Positions 8,384-62,277 of a stretch of DNA of 64,000 nucleotides are shown one piece after another. Below the pieces are notes generated by a model. That model did not search any database. It was given only the letters and a program-made list of their open reading frames with translations, and was not told where the DNA came from. Numbering within the stretch: the stretch's first letter is position 1; the number at the start of each line of letters is the position of its first letter. The stretch lies in the NCBI GenBank assembly GCA_964621395.1, contig CAZULS010000001.1, forward strand, positions 615 to 64,614, written 5' to 3'. Origin of the DNA: an uncultured Candidatus Saccharibacteria bacterium. Lineage in GTDB: Bacteria > Patescibacteriota > Minisyncoccia > Phycocordibacterales > JACNGX01. Both the position numbers and the translations under genes were made by a program.

Positions 8384-8425
8384 GAAAAAAGTGATTTAAT
8401 CTGGAAACTTCACCGTTGTGTCGCA

Positions 8426-8475
8426 GCTCCTAAGGTTAAACCTTGGTATTTATACCAAGGTTTAACCTTAGGAGC
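8426..8475. repeat. Perfect 24+24-nt palindrome with an aaggtttaacctt core
   Basis: gctcctaaggttaaaccttggtat-tt-ataccaaggtttaaccttaggagc. Related palindromes at 16278-16333, 27398-27434 and 52028-52079. Confidence 0.8.
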
Positions 8476-8574
8476 TTTCGTACATTCGTATATATTCGTA
8501 CCATTTGTAGATTTGTATCTATTCGTATATTCGGAGTACCCGAGCTCTAAGCTAAAAGCTATCAGCTATAAGCT

Positions 8575-9440: not shown

Positions 9441-12400
9441 TTACCTCAAAGCGAAGCGCACCGTCTCATTCTCACCAAGTACCGCTTCCGTCGCGTCTTC
9501 AATTTCTTTCTCAAACACGATATTTCTGAGCGATGCTGTTTTCTGAATCATATCTTTGTATTCAGCGATGAGCGACTCAGCGATTGAATCAGCGGAAACA
9601 GCGAGTGTTACCACATCATCCGGCGATAGCCCCTTTGCTTTACGTGCATCTTGAATTGCACGCAAGAGTTCACGCACTTCCCCTTCGCGACGCAGATCAT
9701 CCGTGAGTTCTAAATCGAGACCTGTTCCATTCTCCGTCTTCGATTCGTCCACCACAATTTTCTTCACATTCACTTCATCTTTGATAAGTGCGGCATATCG
9801 CTCGTCGGAGACATACTCGCCCTTCTCGGCAACAAAAAGTGTCGAAAGCGGCTGGCGCACCTTCACCCCTTCGCGCTTGCGCACCAGAAGAGCGGAAGAC
9901 ACCACAGCGCGCACCTTTTCCATCGCGACAATCACCTCCTTTTCTTTCTTCCCCTCTTTCATCTCAATCCAGCTCTCCAAATGCACACTCTCTTTCTTTC
10001 CACCTGTGCGTCCGTACACACGCTCAGAAACAAACGGCGTAAAGGGTGCAAGGAGTATTGCCGTGGCACGAAGCACTTCTCCAAGTACTGCACGCGCCTC
10101 GCGTGCGTCGTTCCCCTCACCTTTCATACGCTCTCTGCTTCGACGCACATACCACGTGGAAAGATCATCCAGAAAGCCAACAAACGGTCTCGTCGCACGG
10201 TCGAGTTCATATGCATCCAAAGCTCGCGTCACATCACGCGACACCTCTCCAAGTCGCGCGAGAATCCATTGATCAAGCACGTTCTTGGGCGCGCCGCCTC
10301 CCGTGGCGCGTCCTTCTTGTCCTTCTTGCCCGGCGGTCCCTCGACCGCTTAGGGCCTCTCCCTTTGGGACGACAAGTTCATAGAAGGCCACCACATTCTC
10401 CAGTCGCGCAATAATTTTTTTATACACCTCATCAACACCCTTCTCGGAAAAGCGAAGTTCTTCACCGCGCACCGCCGGCGAATTCAAGAGATAGAAGCGA
10501 ATGGCATCGGCGCCATAGCGATCCGCCAGATTCATTGGATCAGGATAATTTTTCAGCTTCTTACTCATCTTCTTCCCATCTTCCGCCAAAATCAAACCGT
10601 TCACAATCACGTGGCGGTACGGCGACTCATCAAAAAGCCCGACGCCAAGCATAAGTAAGGTATAAAACCAACCGCGTGTTTGATCCAGTCCTTCAGCAAT
10701 AAAGTCTGCCGGAAAATATTTCTTGAATGATTCTTTCCCTTTCGCCGGATATCCAAATTGTGCAAACGGCATCGCACCGGATTCAAACCAGCAGTCAAAC
10801 ACATCGGGGATACGTGTGTAGGCAGTACCGTCTTTTTCAATTTCCACCTCATCAATATACGGACGATGCACATCAAGCTCGTACTCGGCATTGTGCGGCA
10901 AGGGCACAAAATCCAGCTTTCGATATGTGCCGGTAGATATAAAATCACCTTCTTGCTGTGCATATATCTCAACGATTTCATCTACCGTTCTCCCTTCTGC
11001 ACCTTCAAAGAGCATGCGCGTTGCACCATCATGCGTGACAAAAAGAACGTTTTTCCCCTCATATGTTTCCTCGCATCCATACAACACCTCACTGACTCGA
11101 CGCTTCACATCGACATTACTCTCCCCTTTCGGACGCGGCTTTGTCATCCATTCATGAGCGTTTGTAAAATGCTCATCATCAACACTAACCGGCTTCCCTT
11201 CAAAATCACCAAAGTCATGCTCGCGAATTCCTTCCTCAATAACAATTGCGTCTTCCGGAAATCCGAGACCTTCGGCAACAAGCTTAGCAGTCTCACGCGT
11301 ACGCACCAAGGGCGATGCGATAATCACATCCGGCATGAAGCCTTCTTTCTTCATTCTTTCCACCGCCTCTGTAATTTCTTCTTTTCCTTTCTCTGTTACA
11401 TGATGTTCGTTCTCCGGAAGACCGGAATAAATTCCTGCCACATTACTCTCCGCTTCACCATGACGCATCACTACATAGGTATTGCCGGCAGTCTTTGTAT
11501 ACTTTTTCAATGTTGCCACACTATCAACCACCAATCGCTCACCCCTCTCATTCTCCCACACAGGCAAGGGAGCCCCCCAGAAACGCTGACGAGAAAAATT
11601 CCAGTCCGGCGCACCTTCAAGGAGATTTGCAAAACGCGCCGAGCCAATCTTCTCCGGCACCCAGCCAATCTTTTTATTTTTCTTCAGCGCACGGTCCTTG
11701 AGCTTTTGAATATCAATAAACCACGCCTCTGTCGCATAATTCAGAAGTGGTGTATCACAACGCCAACAATGCGGATACGGGTGTTCATACTTTTCTTTCG
11801 CAAAAAAGGCGTTGTGTTCTTGCAGATACTTGATCACTGCAATATCGGTTGCAAGACGCTCTTTCTCATCATCACTTCTTGGCTTCACCGCCATACCGGA
11901 AAGCACCTCCACCGTATCCTTCACGATGCCCGTATCATCCACATGCTGCACAAACGGCAGATTATGTTTCTTCCCAAGTGTAAGATCGTCTTCACCAAAC
12001 GCCGGCGCAATGTGCACAATACCGGTTCCGTCTTCGGTTGTCACAAAATCACCCGCATAGATTTTCCATCCGTTTTCACGGTGTTCAAGATTCTCGTCGT
12101 CAGCGTAGTATGGGAAGAGTGGCTTATATGCTTTACCCACAAGCTCTCCTCCCTTCATCTCTCCCTCGACATCATATTCCTTTATACCTGCCTTCTCGAA
12201 CACATCTCCCACCCTCTCTTTGGCAACGATATATCGCGCACCACTCGCAAGGACAATCACATACTCAATATCCTCTCCCACAGCCAAAGCCACATTGCCC
12301 GGCAGTGTCCACGGCGTGGTAGTCCACGCGAGAACGTAAGTTCTCGTGTGCCCCGCGGAGCCTTGGCGGAGTAGGGCATCTCCATCTTCCCCACCATCAT

Positions 12401-13142
12401 CAACCAATTCAAACTTCGCAATCACCGACAAGTCCTTCACGTCCTTGTACCCTTGCGACACCTCATTATTCGAAAGCGTTGTCTCACATCGCGGGCAGAT
12501 ATGCATAGAACGATATCCTTTCGTGATGAGTCCCTTTTTATCGAGCTCAGAAAACGCCCACCATACCGATTCGGTGTATGAGGTATCCATCGTTTTATAC
12601 GCATGATCCATGTCGATAAATCGTCCCATGCGCGGCACGGTTCGCTTCCATTCCTCGTCGTAGCGCATCACACTTCCGCGCGCGCGTTCATTGAATTTCC
12701 CGATGCCATATTTCTCAACATCTTTTTTGTTTTCCAATTCGAGCTCTTCTTCAATCAACACCTCCACCGGCAATCCATGACAATCCCATCCCCATTGCCT
12801 GCGGACATGATTTCCCTGCATTGTTTTGTATCGCGGAATTGCATCCTTCATCGTCCCGGCCAAGAGATGACCATAGTGCGGTGTACCGGTCGCAAATGGA
12901 GGTCCATCATAAAACACAAACTCCTTGCCGCCCTCTGTCGCCTCAAGCGTGCGCTCAAAAATACGTTGCTGTCTCCAGAGCGCAAGTGTTTCTTCTTCTT
13001 TACGCGCAACGTCGGAGAGGGTGCGGTTCCCCTCCATGGCCTTGGCGACGGAGGGTGTCTCCTTTGTTGTATCTGCGTGAGAGGACATCTCATCTCCTTT
13101 TCCACAACCGGGAGAACATGTTTTTGGCACAGACTGACTCAT
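9441..13142 (-). CDS. ileS: Isoleucine--tRNA ligase carrying an inserted histidine-phosphatase (PGAM-type) domain
   Basis: HYGH (PHYGHLLAG) and KMSKS (KMSKKL) motifs. The C-terminal tRNA-binding region is present. About 190 aa between PDWNFSRQRFWGAPLPVWE and RIPDVFDCWFESG carry RHGEAESN...RTRETA...EHDFGDFEG...VTHDGATR. Confidence 0.9.
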   Translation of the reverse strand: MSQSVPKTCSPGCGKGDEMSSHADTTKETPSVAKAMEGNRTLSDVARKEEETLALWRQQRIFERTLEATEGGKEFVFYDGPPFATGTPHYGHLLAGTMKDAIPRYKTMQGNHVRRQWGWDCHGLPVEVLIEEELELENKKDVEKYGIGKFNERARGSVMRYDEEWKRTVPRMGRFIDMDHAYKTMDTSYTESVWWAFSELDKKGLITKGYRSMHICPRCETTLSNNEVSQGYKDVKDLSVIAKFELVDDGGEDGDALLRQGSAGHTRTYVLAWTTTPWTLPGNVALAVGEDIEYVIVLASGARYIVAKERVGDVFEKAGIKEYDVEGEMKGGELVGKAYKPLFPYYADDENLEHRENGWKIYAGDFVTTEDGTGIVHIAPAFGEDDLTLGKKHNLPFVQHVDDTGIVKDTVEVLSGMAVKPRSDDEKERLATDIAVIKYLQEHNAFFAKEKYEHPYPHCWRCDTPLLNYATEAWFIDIQKLKDRALKKNKKIGWVPEKIGSARFANLLEGAPDWNFSRQRFWGAPLPVWENERGERLVVDSVATLKKYTKTAGNTYVVMRHGEAESNVAGIYSGLPENEHHVTEKGKEEITEAVERMKKEGFMPDVIIASPLVRTRETAKLVAEGLGFPEDAIVIEEGIREHDFGDFEGKPVSVDDEHFTNAHEWMTKPRPKGESNVDVKRRVSEVLYGCEETYEGKNVLFVTHDGATRMLFEGAEGRTVDEIVEIYAQQEGDFISTGTYRKLDFVPLPHNAEYELDVHRPYIDEVEIEKDGTAYTRIPDVFDCWFESGAMPFAQFGYPAKGKESFKKYFPADFIAEGLDQTRGWFYTLLMLGVGLFDESPYRHVIVNGLILAEDGKKMSKKLKNYPDPMNLADRYGADAIRFYLLNSPAVRGEELRFSEKGVDEVYKKIIARLENVVAFYELVVPKGEALSGRGTAGQEGQEGRATGGGAPKNVLDQWILARLGEVSRDVTRALDAYELDRATRPFVGFLDDLSTWYVRRSRERMKGEGNDAREARAVLGEVLRATAILLAPFTPFVSERVYGRTGGKKESVHLESWIEMKEGKKEKEVIVAMEKVRAVVSSALLVRKREGVKVRQPLSTLFVAEKGEYVSDERYAALIKDEVNVKKIVVDESKTENGTGLDLELTDDLRREGEVRELLRAIQDARKAKGLSPDDVVTLAVSADSIAESLIAEYKDMIQKTASLRNIVFEKEIEDATEAVLGENETVRFALR

Positions 13143-13287: not shown

Positions 13288-13341
13288 ACAAAACCAAAGG
13301 TGAGCTTTGGTATGCATACCAAAGCTCACCTTTGGTTTTGT
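13288..13341. repeat. Perfect 25-bp-arm palindrome (acaaaaccaaaggtgagctttggtat-gc-ataccaaagctcacctttggttttgt)
   Basis: Seen directly. Lies in the divergent region between ileS and the plus-strand gene at 13491. A further GC hairpin gcgccccggatgac-ttc-gtcatccggggcgc sits at 13387-13417. Confidence 0.8.
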
Positions 13342-16277: not shown

Positions 16278-16333
16278 GAACCGACCAAGGTTAAACCTTG
16301 GTATAAATACCAAGGTTTAACCTTGGTCGGTTC
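16278..16333. repeat. Perfect 27-bp-arm palindrome of the aaggtttaacctt family
   Basis: gaaccgaccaaggttaaaccttggtat-aa-ataccaaggtttaaccttggtcggttc. Confidence 0.8.
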
Positions 16334-20570: not shown

Positions 20571-20833
20571 ATACTGTCATTCCCGCCTCCGAGCGGGAAT
20601 CTTCTCTGTCTTGTTTCCGAGAGCTATTAGGGAAGATCCCGCATCAAGTGCGGGATGACAAAGAGTGTATATGCCATCTGAAAAGCGGTGACCGAAGGTC
20701 GCCGCTTCTTTCTAATTTCTAATTCCGAATTTCTAACTTCTAATCATCGTCATCATCCTTGTCTTTCTTATGTGAATCGCTTTTTTTCGAAGAACCTGCC
20801 TCATCGTAGGTGGCTTGTTCTCGTGAGTGAAGA

Positions 20834-20942
20834 TTCGTGCGAACCGCAGTCGCGGAGACCGTGCCGCACCATTCGTGCGGTGCGGTTGAGCGACAAGGTG
20901 CAGCCGAATATTCAACACGAGAACTGCCAAGCACACACTCAA
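20834..20942. repeat. Copy A of a ~100-nt structured repeat (..cggagaccgtgccgcac-cattc-gtgcggtgcggttgagcgacaag..gagaactgccaagc)
   Basis: The same element in reverse orientation sits at 29077-29180 and 52168-52270. The central hairpin has G.U pairs in one orientation only. Confidence 0.7.
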
Positions 20943-29076: not shown

Positions 29077-29180
29077 GAGCTTGGCAATTCTCGCACTCTC
29101 TATCCGGCTCCGTCTTGTCGCTCAACCGCACCGCACGAATAGTGCGGCACGGTCTCCGCGACATCGTCTCGCTCGAATAG
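29077..29180. repeat. Copy B (reverse orientation) of the ~100-nt structured repeat
   Basis: Reverse complement aligns with 20834-20942 (gagaccgtgccgcactattcgtgcggtgcggttgagcgacaag...gagaattgccaagc). Confidence 0.7.
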
Positions 29181-29307
29181 AAAGCGCGAGAATAAGCCAT
29201 TTAATATGAGATGGGTTCTACAAATAATACAAATGATTTGTGTTTGGTGAATATATTCGCGTATTCGTACCATTCGTATATATTTGTATGTATTCATACA
29301 TTCGGAA

Positions 29308-35823: not shown

Positions 35824-35897
35824 GGGCGATTAGCTCAGTTGGCTAGAGCAATCCGTTTACACCGGAAAGGTCGGGGGTTCAAGTCCCTCATCGCCCA
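35824..35897 (+). tRNA. tRNA-Val (anticodon UAC)
   Basis: GGGCGAUUAGCUCAGUUGGCUAGAGC-A-AUCCG-UUUACAC-CGGAA..GGGGGUUCAAGUCCCUCAUCGCCCA. Terminator hairpin at 35900-35943. Confidence 0.85.
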
Positions 35898-35943
35898 CAA
35901 ATACACGAGCGCGGAGCATGACTCCGCGCTCGTTTTGTATTTG

Positions 35944-36152
35944 TGTGGCGATGAGGGACTTGAAGAGAGCTGTGCGCGAAGCCCGACAAGATTTATCTTG
36001 TCGGAGCACGGCGACGGGGTCGCGAGTTCTTAGTAAATTGCGAATACTTGGAGCAATATACTTAGAACTGGTGACCAAGTCCCTCATCAAAAAAATCCCG
36101 AAGCATGCCTTCGGGACCTTTGATTTTGTAGGACGATGAGGGACTTGAAAGC
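35944..36152. repeat. Inverted and direct partial copies of the tRNA-Val 3' end (tgtggcgatgagggacttgaa; caagtccctcatc; gacgatgagggacttgaaagc)
   Basis: Fragments at 35944-35964 (inverted), 36070-36088 (direct) and 36132-36152 (inverted), all downstream of the tRNA-Val gene. Confidence 0.7.
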
Positions 36153-36230
36153 CGCAGGCCGCGAAGCCGATTCCGACTTTCGGAGGAATCGAGGCCGAGG
36201 CGGGGTGAGAAAGCGAATGCCTGGAACTTT

Positions 36231-36306
36231 CGCAAGGTCTTTTGAGATATATTGAAAGGCTTTGCTTGAACAATATATCCAAAAGGTGTACTGCTCCTGT
36301 AAGGAG
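36231..36306. repeat. Copy A of a conserved ~75-nt module (..ttgagatatattg-aaaggctttgcttgaa-caatatatcc..ggtgtactgctcctgtaaggagg)
   Basis: Homologous copies at 48315-48393 and 48155-48228. The stem sequence differs between copies but the base pairing is retained. Confidence 0.7.
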
Positions 36307-36431
36307 GCAACACTTTGCGGATTATGAGCTTTAGCGAAATAATACGCTTAGTGATTCGTGATCGAGTCCATTACACTTACCTTCAATTTCCCCATGTATG
36401 GTATCTGAAAAATTTTTGATATAATTGTGGT

Positions 36432-38935: not shown

Positions 38936-38975
38936 CCTGCTCTAGAGCTAACTCTAGAGTTAGCTCTAGAGCAGG
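38936..38975. repeat. 40-nt perfect palindrome cctgctctagagctaa-ctctagag-ttagctctagagcagg
   Basis: Seen directly. It is also its own reverse complement. Lies just upstream of the 39014 gene. Confidence 0.8.
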
Positions 38976-39655: not shown

Positions 39656-39659
39656 GGGT

Positions 39660-39917
39660 TCGATTCCTGGCAGGGGCACTGATTCACAAAACACCACTCC
39701 CTTAAGGGAGCGGTGTTTTGCATCACGGCGCAAGCGCCGTAGAATCAGTGCCCCTGCCAGGAATGTCCCACAGTCACTAAGTAAAATACTTCGCCAAGGC
39801 TCGTATTTTACAAAGTGCTGCTGGACGCGGCTCGCGGTCTTCGCAGCAAGCTGCTCAGACATACTCCGCCGTTCGATTCCTGACGCGAGCCAAGCAGTTG
39901 GCTCGCTGCAGGGGCAC
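39660..39917. repeat. Array of partial tRNA-Arg(UCU) 3'-end copies and nested hairpins
   Basis: ggttcgattcctggcaggggcac (39662-39684). gtgcccctgccaggaat (39749-39765). gttcgattcctg-[acgcgagccaagcagttggctcgctg]-caggggcac (39871-39917). Followed by a 21-bp hairpin that closes onto the tRNA gene. Confidence 0.7.
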
Positions 39918-39950
39918 AAATGAAAAAGCCCTTCCGGACTTTTTCATTTG

Positions 39951-40022
39951 TGCCCCTGCCAGGAATCGAACCTGGAATGGGAGATTAGAAGTCTCCAGTT
40001 ATATCCGTTTAACTACAGGGGC
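39951..40022 (-). tRNA. tRNA-Arg (anticodon UCU)
   Basis: Minus-strand GCCCCUGUAGUUAAACGGAUAUAACUGGAGA-CUUCUAA-UCUCC..CAGGUUCGAUUCCUGGCAGGGGCA. Confidence 0.85.
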
Positions 40023-43404: not shown

Positions 43405-43497
43405 GTCAGAGTATACATAAAGTCTTTATTTGTTCTCTAGATCCCGCATCAAGTGCGGGATGACAAGTGTCTGATTTAGAATGACAATTAACTCTTT

Positions 43498-43630
43498 TGT
43501 CATTCCGGACTCCTGCCGAGCTCGACTTTCACTGATTACATTAAAAAATTGTAAACGATAGAAGAAAGAACAAAAAAATGTTTTGCTGTAAACGACATTA
43601 GTGAAAGTGGGGCTCTGGTGATCCGGAATC
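43498..43630. mobile_element. MITE-like ~130-nt composite element (tgtcattccggactcctgccgagctcgactttcactga...agtgaaagtggggctctggtgatccggaatc)
   Basis: ~30-nt terminal inverted repeats built on the stem-loop family, with a ~70-nt AT-rich core. Full-length paralogues at 51880-52011 and 62147-62277 in the opposite orientation. Overlaps the 3' end of ruvX. Confidence 0.65.
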
Positions 43631-44023
43631 TTCGCTATGTCTTTTCTGCTTATCCAAATACCGCTGCAGAATAAGTGCCGCCGCCGATGCATCGTTTGTC
43701 TCCGTCTTTCCTTGCATCTTTCGCGCCTCCTGCGACGTATCATATTCCCACTCAAAATGCACACTGAGGCCGGTTGCTTCTTCAAGCGCTCGAGCATACG
43801 CTTGAGATTCTTCCCAAATCGGATTCTCTTCTCCCGAACGCATGCGTGACTCTCCCATGACAATCACACTCACGCTATGCTCACGAACAATCTCTTTGAT
43901 TCGCTCCACACTCTCCTCCCTCGCAGAAACAACTTCAAGCGGAAATGCCAATGTACCACTCTCATCTGAAAGCGCGACGCCAAGGCGTTTGGTTCCATAA
44001 TCAATGCCAAGATATGTGCTCAT
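43598..44023 (-). CDS. ruvX: Holliday-junction resolvase-like RuvX/YqgF
   Basis: LGIDYGTKRLGVALSDESGTLAFPL and SV...DASAAALILQ motifs. Start trimmed to MSTYLGIDYG. Confidence 0.85.
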   Translation of the reverse strand: MSTYLGIDYGTKRLGVALSDESGTLAFPLEVVSAREESVERIKEIVREHSVSVIVMGESRMRSGEENPIWEESQAYARALEEATGLSVHFEWEYDTSQEARKMQGKTETNDASAAALILQRYLDKQKRHSEDSGSPEPHFH

Positions 44024-47976: not shown

Positions 47977-48063
47977 GGAGAGGTGGCAGAGTGGTCGATT
48001 GCACCGGTCTTGAAAACCGGAGTGCGGGAAACCGTACCGAGGGTTCGAATCCCTCCCTCTCCG
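47977..48063 (+). tRNA. tRNA-Ser (anticodon UGA), long variable arm
   Basis: GGAGAGGUGGCAGAGUGGUCGAUUGC-ACCGG-UCUUGAAA-ACCGG-variable arm-GAGGGUUCGAAUCCCUCCCUCUCCG. Confidence 0.85.
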
Positions 48064-48540
48064 CATTTGAAAATCCCGCCCATTTAGGCGGTGATTTTCT
48101 TATGCGGAGAGGAGGAAGCCAACTGCTTGGCTTTCGTGAGGGATTCGAAAAGGTTCTCCCATATTTTTGAGGAGCTTTGCTCCGAAAAAATGGGAAACCT
48201 GCACTGCTCCTGTAAGGAGAGAATCCCTCCCTCTCCGCAGTGAACGAAGTGAATAAGGCGGTGGAGGGATTCGAACCCGTAGGGGGTCGGGGTGAGGAGC
48301 GAATACGTGGAGCTCCGCAAGACCTTTTGAGATATATTGGAGAGCTTTGCTCGAACAATATATCCATAAAGGTGTACTGTTCCTGTAAGGAAGGCGGAAC
48401 GCCCCCGTGGAGGAGGCAACGCGGAACCGTGGGTTCCGCGAGCGCAGTCCAGCCCTACTTTTTCAAAAGTAGGGCTGGACGAGCAGTGAGCATTCCCTCC
48501 CTCTCCGCATAAATAATGAGTCAGGTGCGTGTCCACATCC
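48064..48540. repeat. Array of tRNA-Ser 3'-end fragments (direct and inverted) interleaved with two copies of the conserved ~75-nt module
   Basis: Inverted acceptor + agccaactgcttggct hairpin + inverted T-arm at 48103-48149. Modules at 48155-48228 and 48315-48393. ccctccctctccgca repeats at 48235-48249 and 48499-48513. Confidence 0.7.
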
Positions 48541-48571: not shown

Positions 48572-49057
48572 ATGGAAGAAAACGCTCTCAACGAACCATT
48601 CCAATGGACAGCGCCGGAATATCAGCAAAGAGCTCACACGCCTGATTGGTATTGGGGAGTCGGACTTACCGGTGCCGTGCTTGTTGCTGTCGGCATCATC
48701 ACAAACAATCCCTTCTTCTCAATCTTCATCGTCATTGCTGTTGCTTCCATTTTCTTTTTCCACGTCCGCACGCCGCACATTGTTGATTTCGGCGTCTCAC
48801 GCAAAGGAGTCCGTGTCGACAAGACACTCTACCCCTTCGCTACACTTGAGTCATTTTGGATTAGGGAGAATATTCTTGAAGAGAAAGAGCCGAAGCTCAT
48901 TTTGAAATCAAAAAAGATGGTTATGCCACTCGTCATTATCCCGCTTCCGGAAGGCGTTGATTTCGATGAACTGCAAGACTTCCTCGAACAATTCCTCTCC
49001 GAAGAAGAACACCCCGAGCAGCTCTCCGAGCAGATTATGGATCGGTTGGGATTCTAG
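48572..49057 (+). CDS. Hypothetical two-TM membrane protein
   Basis: TM segments (VGLTGAVLVAVGIITN, FSIFIVIAVASIFFF). Acidic C-terminus. Confidence 0.5.
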   Translation: MEENALNEPFQWTAPEYQQRAHTPDWYWGVGLTGAVLVAVGIITNNPFFSIFIVIAVASIFFFHVRTPHIVDFGVSRKGVRVDKTLYPFATLESFWIRENILEEKEPKLILKSKKMVMPLVIIPLPEGVDFDELQDFLEQFLSEEEHPEQLSEQIMDRLGF

Positions 49058-49145: not shown

Positions 49146-49721
49146 TTACGTTTTCAAAGAAAATCTTTTGTATTCTCGCCATTCTCCTTTTTCGTTTTGA
49201 ATAGCGAGGCAGACATTATCGATTTTAATCTCTCTTTCAAATGTCTTCCCCGAAAGATATTCTTTGGCTTTTTCATATCCATCTTCCGTCAAATCTTTAT
49301 ACGCAACAGTAATGTGAGGACTATAGGGTAGCGGCTGCTGGTACCACACCGCATACGAACTCGCGATGTTTTCTTCAAAAAATGTTGTTATTTCCCCGAG
49401 CCCTCCCAAATTGTATGGCTTGATGTACACAACAAAGGGACTCAATCCGAGCTTCGCACCTTGTGTCCAATCAGACATAAAAGAAAATGTTTGAGTCTCT
49501 ATGTGAAAAACAGGAACATTTTCTAGAAAGGCTTCTATTTCTTCATACAACTTTTCTAATTGTTCACCAGTAACTTCAACGCCCGAACCCACCGTAATAT
49601 GTGGTTCCCATACTTCCCACGCACCTTTTGAGTCGGTGATATCTGTTAATTCTTTCTGAATTTCCACAATTTCTTTGGCAATCTCTTTGGGGAAATACGA
49701 GACAATTGAGAATGTATACAT
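49146..49721 (-). CDS. 2H phosphoesterase superfamily protein (LigT/2'-5' RNA ligase-like)
   Basis: Two H-x-T-x motifs (HITVGSG and HITVAYK). Start trimmed to MYTFSIV, because the upstream ORF extension covers tRNA-derived repeats. Confidence 0.7.
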   Translation of the reverse strand: MYTFSIVSYFPKEIAKEIVEIQKELTDITDSKGAWEVWEPHITVGSGVEVTGEQLEKLYEEIEAFLENVPVFHIETQTFSFMSDWTQGAKLGLSPFVVYIKPYNLGGLGEITTFFEENIASSYAVWYQQPLPYSPHITVAYKDLTEDGYEKAKEYLSGKTFEREIKIDNVCLAIQNEKGEWREYKRFSLKT

Positions 49722-49790
49722 GGACCTATGGTAGCACATGTGTTGATTGGGAGGAATTGCCTCGGAACCACCTAAAGTAAGTCGCTGGAT

Positions 49791-49838
49791 GTCGATTCCT
49801 GACGCAAGGCAAGCAGTTGCCTTGCTCCGAGGGGACAC
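49791..49838. repeat. Inverted tRNA-Arg(GCG) 3'-end duplicate with inserted hairpin (gtcgattcctg-[acgcaaggcaagcagttgccttgct]-ccgaggggacac)
   Basis: Same architecture as 39871-39917 and 48103-48149. The insert is homologous (aaGCAGTTg core). Confidence 0.7.
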
Positions 49839-49878
49839 AGCAAAAAGGGCACCCACAGGTGCTCCTTTCTGCAATGTG

Positions 49879-49950
49879 TCCCCTCGGCAGGAATCGAACC
49901 TACATTACGAGCTCCGCAAGCTCGCGTCCTATCCGTTGAACGACGAGGGG
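49879..49950 (-). tRNA. tRNA-Arg (anticodon GCG)
   Basis: Minus-strand CCCCUCG-UC-GUUC-AACGGAUA-GGAC-G-CGAGC-UUGCGGA-GCUCG-UAAU-GUAGG-UUCGAUU-CCUGC-CGAGGGG-A. The anticodon loop places GCG at positions 34-36. Confidence 0.7.
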
Positions 49951-51756: not shown

Positions 51757-51879
51757 GGGAATCATATTCGTCTTTCTCCCAATCGTTCTGCCGCACAGGC
51801 AAAGACAGGGAAATAATTCTGTCATTCCGGCCTCCGAGCCGGAATCTTCGCTGTATTATTTCTTGAGAGCGTTGGGGAA

Positions 51880-52011
51880 GATCCCGCATCACCAGAGCCC
51901 CACTTTCACTAATCTCATTTTTACTCACATACTTTTTGTTCATTCTTCTATCGCCTTTGGTTTTCTTATGTAATCAGTGAAAGTGAAGCTCGGCAGGAGT
52001 GCGGGATGACA
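51880..52011. mobile_element. MITE-like ~130-nt composite element, second full-length copy
   Basis: gatcccgcatcaccagagccccactttcac...cagtgaaagtgaagctcggcaggagtgcgggatgaca. A solo stem-loop lies adjacent at 51820-51846. Confidence 0.65.
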
Positions 52012-52027
52012 AAGAATGGAGTGTGCA

Positions 52028-52079
52028 CCCTGCCAAGGTTAAACCTTTGGATTAATCCAAAGGTTTAACCTTGGCAGGG
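52028..52079. repeat. Perfect 26-bp-arm palindrome of the aaggtttaacctt family
   Basis: ccctgccaaggttaaacctttggatt|aatccaaaggtttaaccttggcaggg. Confidence 0.8.
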
Positions 52080-52167
52080 TTTCAGCTCGTCAAAAGACAA
52101 AAATGATATATAATACAAGAACCAGTCTCACTGAAAACACAGCGCTATAAGTATTATTAAAAAGCTG

Positions 52168-52270
52168 CGTATGGGCTGTTCTCGCACCAAAAATCCGACT
52201 GCGCCTTGACTCTCAACCGCATCGCACGAGAGTGCGCCGCGGTCTCCGAGACATCGGCTCGCTCGAATTT
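52168..52270. repeat. Copy C (reverse orientation) of the ~100-nt structured repeat
   Basis: Reverse complement aligns with copies A/B (cggagaccgcggcgcac-tctc-gtgcgatgcggttgagagtcaag). Confidence 0.65.
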
Positions 52271-52312
52271 TTTGTCCGAGTCCAAGCCGTTTTCAATGAG
52301 ACTGATTCTCAT

Positions 52313-56346: not shown

Positions 56347-56419
56347 CCGCCCGTAGCTCAGCTGGTAGAGCAGTTGCCTTTTAAGCAAACGGTCGAAGGT
56401 TCAAGTCCTTCCGGGCGGA
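56347..56419 (+). tRNA. tRNA-Lys (anticodon UUU)
   Basis: CCGCCCG-UA-GCUC-AGCUGGUAGA-GAGC..UUGCC-UUUUAAG-CAAAC..GAAGG-UUCAAGU-CCUUC-CGGGCGG-A. First acceptor pair is C1:G72 (unusual but consistent). Confidence 0.75.
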
Positions 56420-61983: not shown

Positions 61984-62146
61984 ATGAGTAAGAATAAAGA
62001 ATTACGAATAATGAATCAAGGCACGGAAGTGGTGCGGGACCGGCCATGGAATAAAGAATTATGAATTATGAATCAAGGCACAGCAAAAAACGGCGTCATG
62101 CGCCGCATCACTTCCACGCAAGACAAAAGCGGCACATGAATCTCGA

Positions 62147-62277
62147 GATCCCGCATCACCAGAGCCTCACTTTCACCAATATCATTTGCAGTAAAACATC
62201 TTTTACCCCCCCTCCTACCGTCTACAGTTTCTCAGGTGTTCAGTGAAAGTGAAGCTCGGCAAGAGTGCGGGATGACA
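62147..62277. mobile_element. MITE-like ~130-nt composite element, third full-length copy
   Basis: gatcccgcatcaccagagcctcactttcaccaata...cagtgaaagtgaagctcggcaagagtgcgggatgaca. Followed by terminator hairpin 62307-62335. Confidence 0.65.

Follow-up and report, generated by a model that had tools for sequence, protein, structure and literature searches.

The 64,000-nt stretch of contig CAZULS010000001.1 analyzed here (hereafter the window), from an uncultured Candidatus Saccharibacteria bacterium, contains at positions 39871–39917 the 3' end of the adjoining tRNA-Arg(TCT) gene copied in inverted orientation and split by a hairpin. In our best reading, this feature is the 5' arm, seen from the antisense strand, of a structured non-coding unit lying behind a tRNA or transfer-messenger RNA (tmRNA) gene on the same strand. 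Such a unit carries two arms copied from its neighbor tRNA around a hairpin of fixed geometry, then a core with covarying pairs and finally the 3' end of the tRNA repeated in direct orientation. In architecture it resembles the RtT RNA of E. coli, and the account that we consider probable, if only by a little, is of an RtT-like, tRNA-shaped trailer RNA unit behind tRNA and tmRNA genes, which also duplicates and spreads. The RtT-type architecture is known; what is new is a wide family with a fixed-geometry hairpin, outside Rfam.

Structured units behind tRNA genes in the window

ARAGORN identified eight tRNA genes in the window, three of which, those for tRNA-Arg(TCT) (39950–40022, minus strand; Rfam tRNA, 64.9 bits), tRNA-Arg(GCG) (49878–49950, minus strand) and tRNA-Ser(TGA) (47977–48064, plus strand), the latter two also matched by Rfam, have inverted copies of their 3' ends split by a hairpin of exactly 25 nt. 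On the plus strand, the pieces at Arg-TCT are A = GTTCGATTCCTG (39871–39882), the hairpin X = ACGCGAGCCAAGCAGTTGGCTCGCT (39883–39907) and B = GCAGGGGCAC (39908–39917); those at Arg-GCG are A (49792–49801), X (49802–49826) and B (49827–49838); and at Ser-TGA the plus strand has the mirror image, B' (48103–48112), X' (48113–48137) and A' (48138–48149). With these 25 nt removed, the sequence at all three loci is reverse-complementary to the tRNA without a mismatch, between the T-loop and a point 1–3 nt past the discriminator. A fourth copy, behind tRNA-Val(TAC) (35824–35898, plus strand; ARAGORN and Rfam), is unbroken and has no hairpin (35943–35964). These four copies had been reported by the initial annotation of this DNA, whose coordinates and sequences we confirmed, as we did its statement that the flanks are particular to each tRNA and the hairpin common to all. 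The three 25-mers align without gaps as a 9-bp stem with a 4-nt loop; stem pairs 4:23, 5:22 and 8:19 differ among them, the last two being fully compensated. The sequence AAGCAGTTG occurs three times in the window (0.46 expected), only at the three hairpin sites. The His, Lys and two Leu tRNA genes have no comparable module in the window, and are followed by ordinary terminators or by nothing.

The remainder of each unit had gone unremarked: direct repeats of tRNA 3' ends (39748–39764, 48221–48239, 48494–48509 and 36076–36090), additional inverted copies (39657–39679, 48257–48278 and 36134–36149) and, between the repeats at each locus, ~90–110 nt of common foldable sequence. Read in the tRNA sense, the order is tRNA, apex, B', hairpin, A', a ~90-nt core and direct repeat. 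The apex is a terminator-like palindrome or a short GAACGAAGTG loop; B' complements the acceptor 3' strand of the tRNA, and A' its T-stem 3' strand and T-loop; the core forms two hairpin arms on a three-way junction. The direct copy holds the last 17–21 nt of the tRNA, beginning at T-loop position 56–58, and lies ~105–113 nt upstream of the hairpin as patterned in the searches below (65–79 or 91–95 nt in shorter classes). Folded in this sense, window units have a stem like that of an acceptor, then the 25-nt hairpin, and a helix resembling a T-stem around the two hairpin arms (−93, −72 and −75 kcal/mol). In the window units, and as helix 2 of the alignment A1 described below, the 5' arm pairs with the terminal direct repeat as a closing helix by which every unit reconstitutes the acceptor/T-stem helix of the tRNA that it follows; where a tRNA has its D and anticodon arms there is the 25-nt hairpin, and in place of the T-loop there is the core. 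Rather than an insert in a tRNA duplicate, as first proposed, the hairpin is one stem of a structured unit of ~150 nt that includes the covarying core and the direct repeat.

Covariation and conserved hairpin geometry

We aligned 34 units (alignment A1, which includes the Arg-TCT unit of the window but not Ser unit 1 or the Arg-GCG unit) and obtained 38 consensus pairs, of which 30 show compensatory changes. Of the cells in these pairs, 89.8% were paired, versus 66.9% when shuffled and 33–44% with partners slid, and doubly changed cells numbered 310 versus 104. A covariance model (CM), R1, built from A1 found five units in the window, at four of the eight tRNAs, all behind the tRNA and all in the tRNA sense; elsewhere in the window it gave nothing better than an E-value of ~0.01, except for a weak antisense echo (39875–39942) at the Arg-TCT unit.

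An independent sample was obtained by scanning metagenome contigs with a 19-nt core motif that excludes the hairpin, yielding at least 120 loci with 73 distinct elements. A tRNA was located upstream on the same strand in 57/57 assignable cases, mostly 68–131 nt away. The segment between B' and A' was modally 24–25 nt in length and folded as 9 bp with a tetraloop, in many different sequences. R1 identified 97 units at these loci (alignment A2), in which pairing was 90.0% versus 65.7% shuffled, and all nine pairs of the hairpin covary (98.5% paired). Sense-strand hairpin loops in this sample were CUGC (26/60), UUGA (9), CUUC (5) and UUUA (5). Based on these varied sequences with constant geometry, the core aaGCAGTTg singled out by the initial annotation is one common allele; the module occurs with or without it, and the conserved trait is the geometry, 9 bp and a tetraloop, not the sequence.

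The reported feature lies at the Arg-TCT locus. Between the tRNA end and the inverted copy lies an apex (39918–39949) that is a near-perfect, weakly terminator-like palindrome (inverted repeat I3, with 24-nt arms, 96% complementary, and a 4-nt gap). It is followed on the minus strand by the 5' arm (39871–39917), whose B, X and A pieces become B', X' and A' in the tRNA-sense reading, by the structured core (39765–39870) with its P3 and P1/P2 hairpins, supported by consensus helices and a fold of −93 kcal/mol, and by the 3' arm DR1 (39748–39764), a 17-nt direct repeat of the tRNA 3' end that is 100% identical (direct repeat D2). The R1 match here (39749–39916, minus strand, 90.5 bits) is to a member of the training set. 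An older layer (39657–39747) consists of a 23-nt perfect inverted copy without hairpin (39657–39679) and a spacer with a terminator-like hairpin (39687–39720), as indicated by inverted repeats I1, I2 and I4 and a terminator scan. The Arg-GCG unit (49742–49877, minus strand) has an apex (49839–49877) that scores as a terminator on the minus strand, the three pieces listed above and a short core (49742–49791); its R1 match (49742–49835, minus strand, 47.3 bits) lies outside the training set, as does that of Ser unit 1 (48104–48237, plus strand, 57 bits).

Ser unit 1 (48066–48239, plus strand), delimited by repeats and fold, has its apex at 48066–48102 and its core at 48150–48220, between the 5' arm and the direct repeat at 48221–48239. 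Ser unit 2 (48240–48509, plus strand), delimited by repeats, comprises a GAACGAAGTG-type apex, an arm (48257–48278), a core (48288–48391) and, in last position, the 3' end of tRNA-Ser repeated in direct orientation (48494–48509). Its arm is an inverted T-arm/acceptor copy (GGGTTCGAATCCCTCCACCGCC in the tRNA sense) not of tRNA-Ser(TGA) but of a tRNA absent from the window, and its core is 86% identical over 106 nt to that of Val unit 2 in the same genome. Repeats also delimit the two Val units on the plus strand. Val unit 1 (35899–36090), which lacks hairpin X, has a terminator-like apex (35899–35942), the contiguous inverted copy (35943–35964), a core (35965–36075) and a direct repeat (36076–36090), with an R1 match at 35954–36084 (plus strand, 15.4 bits, E-value ~9e-4, model positions 35–140). 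Val unit 2 (36091–36369) has an apex (36091–36133), an inverted copy (36134–36149) and a longer core akin to that of Ser unit 2 (R1 match 36141–36369, 12.3 bits, E-value ~0.009).

Distribution and linkage to tRNA and tmRNA genes

The hairpin pattern ACGNNAGNCAAGCAGTTGNCTNNCT, with 19 specified bases, was scanned in the species genomes of GTDB and matched at least 119 stretches, versus a chance expectation of ~4 by our own arithmetic (596 Gb × 2 / 4^19). The conservation of the hairpin hence exceeds chance, and the wider scan that the initial annotation had suggested revealed a widespread pattern next to tRNA and tmRNA genes. Carriers among the matches listed were Saccharibacteria, Paceibacteria, other Patescibacteria, Elusimicrobia, Parachlamydiales, Simkaniaceae, Verrucomicrobia, Gammaproteobacteria and Bdellovibrionales, and some of the hairpin-bearing contigs reach 0.5 Mb. 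For 93 of the 128 hairpins listed there was a tRNA within 400 nt, always on the strand opposite to the pattern and with 36 anticodon types in all; several of the remaining hairpins adjoin a tmRNA gene, confirmed by ARAGORN at L003, L011 and L022. Nearly every match listed has a T-loop/T-stem copy on one side and an acceptor-strand copy on the other, then a palindromic spacer and then the tRNA, and in 54/86 cases the flanks are contiguous in the tRNA. Both features of RtT-type location, a tRNA or tmRNA gene immediately upstream on the unit's own strand and tandem repetition, are thus present.

In many elements from different phyla a short apex motif, TCACTTCGTTC (GAACGAAGTGA in the tRNA sense), replaces the terminator-like palindrome between the tRNA and the unit; examples are L048, L059, L070, L075, L111, L113 and L005, and positions 48240–48256 of the window. 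A Moraniibacteriota contig has a group I intron (L077, 6357–6554; Rfam, 56 bits) ~120 nt from its element. Rfam searches of the window and 18 loci at the gathering score, and of two element-bearing stretches at permissive E-values, returned just tRNA, rRNA and group I intron matches; the module family is absent from Rfam 15. Literature searches with the hairpin sequence and keyword combinations retrieved only primers or unrelated papers.

Strand preference

The feature was initially described on the strand opposite to the tRNA, yet the informative strand is probably the tRNA-sense one, on which the "inverted copy" is the 5' arm of an acceptor/T-stem-like helix. When folded as RNA, cores had energies of −39.3 kcal/mol in the tRNA sense versus −34.1 kcal/mol in the other, the tRNA sense being lower in 89/113 (p = 2e-12), and z-scores after dinucleotide shuffling were −2.9 versus −1.6. 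G·U pairs outnumbered A·C pairs in the consensus helices (53:22, p = 4e-4), in the core helices alone (44:17) and in the hairpin of the core-motif sample (12:3). In addition, 22/117 units have a GA to TC variant in the T-loop copy (TTCTCGT or TTCTCAT for TTCGAGT or TTCGAAT), which in the tRNA sense results in tandem G·A/A·G pairing and on the other strand in pyrimidine mismatches. These data favor the tRNA-sense strand as the one that functions in single-stranded form; they fit RNA and folded single-stranded DNA alike and cannot distinguish the two. A promoter scan gave results at chance level. The 25-nt hairpin has no U tract and lies beyond the apex, and it is the apexes of Val, Ser and Arg-GCG that match the terminator definition of a G+C-rich hairpin with a U tract.

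Spread between tRNA loci

Units occur in tandem at the Ser, Val and Arg-TCT loci of the window and in arrays beyond it (L035, L114, L023, L106, L045, L005 and L038). Cores at least 75% identical between genomes were located beside different tRNAs in 8/8 assignable pairs, e.g., Gly-GCC and Lys-TTT with 87% identity, and despite these related cores each unit agrees with its local tRNA in both arms and direct repeat; an exception is Ser unit 2, with its arms of another tRNA. It follows that the scaffold moves while three tRNA-specific segments are rewritten, and the tandem multiplication and spread among tRNA loci and phyla indicate that, at least in part, the units behave as selfish repeats. This evidence, together with the cross-phylum spread, fits the suggestion that an element is repeatedly associated with tRNA 3' ends. 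Where the case is clean, the direct repeat and the tRNA do not differ, whereas the inverted copy has drifted, its acceptor part most of all; in the core-motif sample, the direct repeat is identical to the tRNA in at least 16/18 positions in 65% of cases. An exact direct repeat beside a drifted inverted copy indicates that the former is either target-derived, gene-converted or constrained. Possible routes for the rewriting are gene conversion in the palindrome that a unit and its tRNA gene make up, insertion with duplication of the target, or a guided mechanism.

Our searches for a linked enzyme were negative. Clustering of the open reading frames (ORFs) neighboring the 119 loci gave no recurrent protein family, only housekeeping proteins such as SmpB and FtsH, and no integrase, transposase, HUH enzyme or reverse transcriptase recurred near them. 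Pfam searches of 30 window ORFs identified aminoacyl-tRNA synthetases, PolA, PilM and similar proteins but no recombinase or reverse transcriptase. A pattern scan of IMG/VR gave zero matches, and a BLAST search with a canonical unit found none in plasmids and phages; nor did we find an autonomous version of the element. A search of strain variants for empty sites yielded no empty/filled pair, same-strain contigs breaking at the repeats. For instance, short-read contigs of the same strain (L120 and L121; Logan SRR8146441 and SRR8146440) end 165 nt before the gene at 48572–49057, inside the Ser repeat region, and the units seem to break assemblies. A Simkaniaceae contig (L072, 5853–7676) has 1.7 kb, including a 344-residue ORF with alpha/beta-hydrolase-like sequence, between an arm-hairpin piece and tRNA-Ser; it may represent a version with cargo or one invaded secondarily.

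An RtT-like reading and its alternatives

The initial annotation knew of no described equivalent, but the classic 178-bp repeats of the E. coli tyrT-tyrV locus, annotated as rttR/RtT (Rfam RF00391), match the units in architecture. In the E. coli repeat, the acceptor/T-stem of tRNA-Tyr is present as an inverted copy, GGGGAAGGATGAGAA, with the same GA to TC change; a core follows and then AATCCTTCCCCCACCACCA, a direct repeat of the last 19 nt of the tRNA; the closing stem of RF00391, on the tRNA-sense strand, is the pairing between the GGGGAAGGATGAGAA and AATCCTTCCCCCACCACCA segments. RtT copies are present at 1 to 10 places per E. coli genome. Based on this shared anatomy, the architecture of our units has a precedent. 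RtT has been known since 1978–1991 and, to our knowledge, is restricted to Enterobacterales and Pasteurellaceae and still lacks an explanation of its function. Members of the family have been detected as RNAs beside Asn and Lys tRNA genes in Actinobacillus (Pasteurellaceae), and the study that describes them presents RtT as an RNA set free from the transcripts of tRNA operons, with a link to the stringent response (PMC4986893). A mobilome study reported that coverage of exonuclease-resistant DNA is raised at the tyrT-tyrV locus under stress, with the cause unknown (bioRxiv 10.1101/2024.07.17.603846).

We infer that a unit would be transcribed with its tRNA or just behind it, that its tRNA-like ends would be recognized by tRNA end-processing enzymes (RNase P, RNase Z or exonucleases, and the CCA-adding enzyme), and that it would be released as a stable tRNA-shaped RNA, as reported for E. 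coli RtT from the tyrT transcript; any cellular role would be exerted by this RNA. At the DNA level, units have multiplied in tandem and spread between tRNA loci and across phyla.

Several findings weigh against this reading. The RtT CM gave no match at or above the Rfam gathering score of 45 bits on the window or the 18 loci, and two stretches with elements gave none even at E-values up to 10 (E. coli controls score 133–137 bits); nhmmer found no similarity between our units and E. coli RtT, and R1 has no match on E. coli RtT. Homology to RtT is therefore not demonstrable, and what appears to be shared, as judged from sequence, is the architecture. Strand-biased mutation, or the folding of DNA in single-stranded form, may also produce the asymmetry between G·U and A·C. 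At Val, Ser and Arg-GCG the apex, when read in the tRNA sense, scores as an intrinsic terminator, and simple co-transcription would thus depend on read-through or on a second promoter. In the core-motif sample, B' is identical to the tRNA in at least 8/9 positions in just 28% of cases, and its changes are uncompensated in the direct repeat, with no within-unit pattern of compensation; such drift suggests that acceptor-stem pairing is loosely kept rather than tightly selected. Finally, an RNA role alone leaves the specificity of the arms for each new tRNA unexplained.

A miniature, gene-less mobile DNA element, mobilized in trans and inserting at the T-loop/3' end of tRNA and tmRNA genes, is an alternative that we regard as rather unlikely; it is compatible with an RNA role and might be a second side of the same story. 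In such an element the inverted copy and the tRNA end might fold in single-stranded DNA as a target-mimicking hairpin, as in the attP of CTX phage, or the arms might be split guides, with the direct repeat as displaced or duplicated target. The direct repeats run from T-loop position 56–58 to the tRNA end, a classic crossover sublocation of integrases, and tRNA and tmRNA genes are classic targets; the tandem arrays, the related cores beside different tRNAs, the foreign arms of Ser unit 2 with its Val-like core, the exact direct repeat beside a drifted inverted copy and a single scaffold across Patescibacteria, Elusimicrobia, Chlamydiae, Verrucomicrobia, Gammaproteobacteria and Bdellovibrionales also fit. 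However, the lack of a recurrent enzyme near the 119 loci and of any among the window ORFs scanned, of matches in IMG/VR, phage and plasmid collections and of an empty/filled site pair all count against it, and conservative site-specific recombination is unable to rewrite three tRNA-specific segments simultaneously. For the split-guide version there is the further difficulty that both arms have the same sense, unlike the guide loops of IS110 bridge RNA. A fully programmable form, in which the arms around the hairpin would be split guides in RNA or folded single-stranded DNA, an unlinked enzyme would insert the unit behind the matching tRNA or tmRNA gene and the arms would be re-templated at each move, seems to us improbable.

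The units might instead serve the tRNA itself as a terminator or 3'-processing structure, the inverted copy extending the terminator stem or sequestering the 3' half of the pre-tRNA to control its maturation. Three window apexes are indeed terminator-like, and 23 nt of the pre-tRNA are available for pairing with the inverted copy. This possibility, which the initial annotation had raised, we nevertheless judge very improbable, as half of the window tRNAs (4/8) have no module, ordinary terminators sufficing for them, and as a covarying 90-nt core, a fixed-geometry hairpin and a terminal direct repeat are neither needed for termination nor explained by it; pairing with the tRNA 3' half would also compete against folding of the tRNA. 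We give least credence to att scars in decay, the traces of ordinary integrase-bearing genomic islands or prophages that repeatedly entered and left tRNA genes. Hot spots of this kind typically show stacked direct repeats of tRNA 3' ends, and the L072 contig with its 1.7 kb between arm and tRNA could be cited in their favor, yet from scars one would expect neither a covarying 150-nt structure common to several phyla nor inverted copies at constant spacing, and there are no integrase remnants in the window or at the 119 loci and no phage or plasmid matches. The initial annotation had itself named alignment with a known integrative element as grounds for discarding its pattern as simple att remnants, and no such element was found.

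Should the RtT-like reading be correct, E. coli RtT would be a local example of a far wider phenomenon, in which tRNA and tmRNA genes of diverse bacteria, in particular the small-genome Patescibacteria, bear modules that copy the identity helix of the neighboring tRNA. The units would then be a candidate RNA family for Rfam, with strong covariation and hundreds of members, and would explain puzzling "tRNA fragments" and assembly breaks by tRNA genes in metagenome-assembled genomes. They also pose a problem, namely how three tRNA-specific segments are rewritten round a conserved scaffold, for at least 36 tRNA types, with no linked enzyme. Its solution might lie in a tRNA-specific RNA, regulatory or decoy, or in a new mechanism of guided mobility; if guided insertion were true, it would be a new type of system aimed at the most conserved genes of the cell.

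Other features of the window

The window is otherwise ordinary chromosome, with genes for isoleucyl- and arginyl-tRNA synthetases (IleRS and ArgRS), PolA, PilM, a Mur ligase and ribosomal protein S20. Directly downstream of the Arg-GCG unit and on the same strand is a gene of the LigT/2'-5' RNA ligase family (49146–49723, minus strand), an RNA-end-healing enzyme; this is a single case. The IleRS-like ORF (9441–13142, minus strand, 1233 residues) has a His_Phos_1 (histidine-phosphatase) domain inserted at residues 557–723 of its class I catalytic domain. Intergenic palindromes of unusual length (40–56 nt), perfect or nearly so, are present at 13288–13341, 52027–52080, 16278–16333, 8425–8476 and 38936–38975; they are partly related (16287–16324 matches 8432–8469 on the opposite strand) and may be a family of bidirectional terminators or of elements like repetitive extragenic palindromes (REPs). 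There are also two dispersed repeat families of ~130–150 nt with 72–81% identity, away from tRNAs and without an R1 match. One (51877–52013, 43496–43633 and 62146–62277) has inverted ends (GATCCCGCATCACC.../...GGAGTGCGGGATG) and the look of a miniature inverted-repeat transposable element (MITE); the other is found at 29079–29227, 20783–20932 and 52174–52309. A 12-mer, AGCAGTTGCCTT, is shared between the D-stem/anticodon-stem junction of tRNA-Lys(TTT) (56369–56380) and the Arg-GCG hairpin (49812–49823); a link of hairpin X to this tRNA was considered, but the match is probably due to chance.

Comparison with known systems

Other classes of element were considered and rejected. Direct repeats as expected of a tyrosine-integrase element are present, but the units are non-coding and have no integrase gene. 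An IS110-family bridge RNA lacks support, there being no DEDD/Tnp_20 ORF and A and B being of the same sense and contiguous in the target, rather than one sense and one antisense. A folded single-stranded attP of the CTX type, as used by integrative mobile elements exploiting Xer (IMEX), would account for an inverted target copy, but here the target is a tRNA, there are no phage genes and there were no IMG/VR or phage matches. MITE- or REP-type repeats do not fit, as CM matches in the window are only behind tRNAs and the ends are tRNA copies, not terminal inverted repeats of the element's own. Likewise, the core motifs of hammerhead and other self-cleaving ribozymes are absent; a contiguous target and the bacterial context speak against an H/ACA-type guide or external guide sequence; and a T-box was considered and dropped. 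A split or permuted tRNA, or a direct tRNA pseudogene, is contradicted by the T-loop part being a reverse complement (e.g., AATCGAAC versus GTTCGATT at Arg-TCT), and a tRNA-primed retroelement by copies that follow the gene trailer, not CCA, and by the absence of a reverse transcriptase.

Among known systems, RtT is similar in its position directly behind a tRNA gene on the same strand, in its tandem repetition with units of ~130–180 nt, in a unit that opens with an inverted T-stem/acceptor copy and closes with a direct repeat of the tRNA 3' end, in the same GA to TC change in the T-loop copy, and in having members by other tRNAs (Asn and Lys). It differs in lacking a hairpin between the acceptor and T-stem parts, as does Val unit 1 of the window, in the topology of its internal core and in its hosts, the new family being found in Patescibacteria, Elusimicrobia, Chlamydiae, Verrucomicrobia and others. 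Integrase islands and cis-mobilizable elements (CIMEs) likewise have direct repeats of tRNA 3' ends that start from the T-loop, tRNA and tmRNA targets and tandem accretion, whereas our units are 150–250 bp in length with no nearby integrase, and have an RNA-like structure and an extra inverted target copy. The attP of CTX phage and other IMEX also places an inverted target copy by the reconstituted target, with a strand that can fold into a target-like duplex with a bulge, and also forms tandem arrays; there, the target is dif with XerCD and the elements are phage genomes with genes, whereas here no replicon is evident and the match is to each individual tRNA. The bridge (seek) RNAs of IS110/IS1111 have a conserved scaffold hairpin between two short segments that covary with flanking target DNA, as do our units, but in the latter there is no DEDD recombinase ORF, the segments are of the same sense and contiguous in the target, and a full direct target copy is present. 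Lastly, tRNA-like structures (the tmRNA domain, mascRNA and viral tRNA-like structures) and 3'ETS-leuZ share with the units an acceptor/T-stem mimic in which other arms are replaced, and an origin in tRNA operon transcripts that is putative for the units; theirs is one fixed identity, whereas the mimic described here copies that of the adjoining tRNA.

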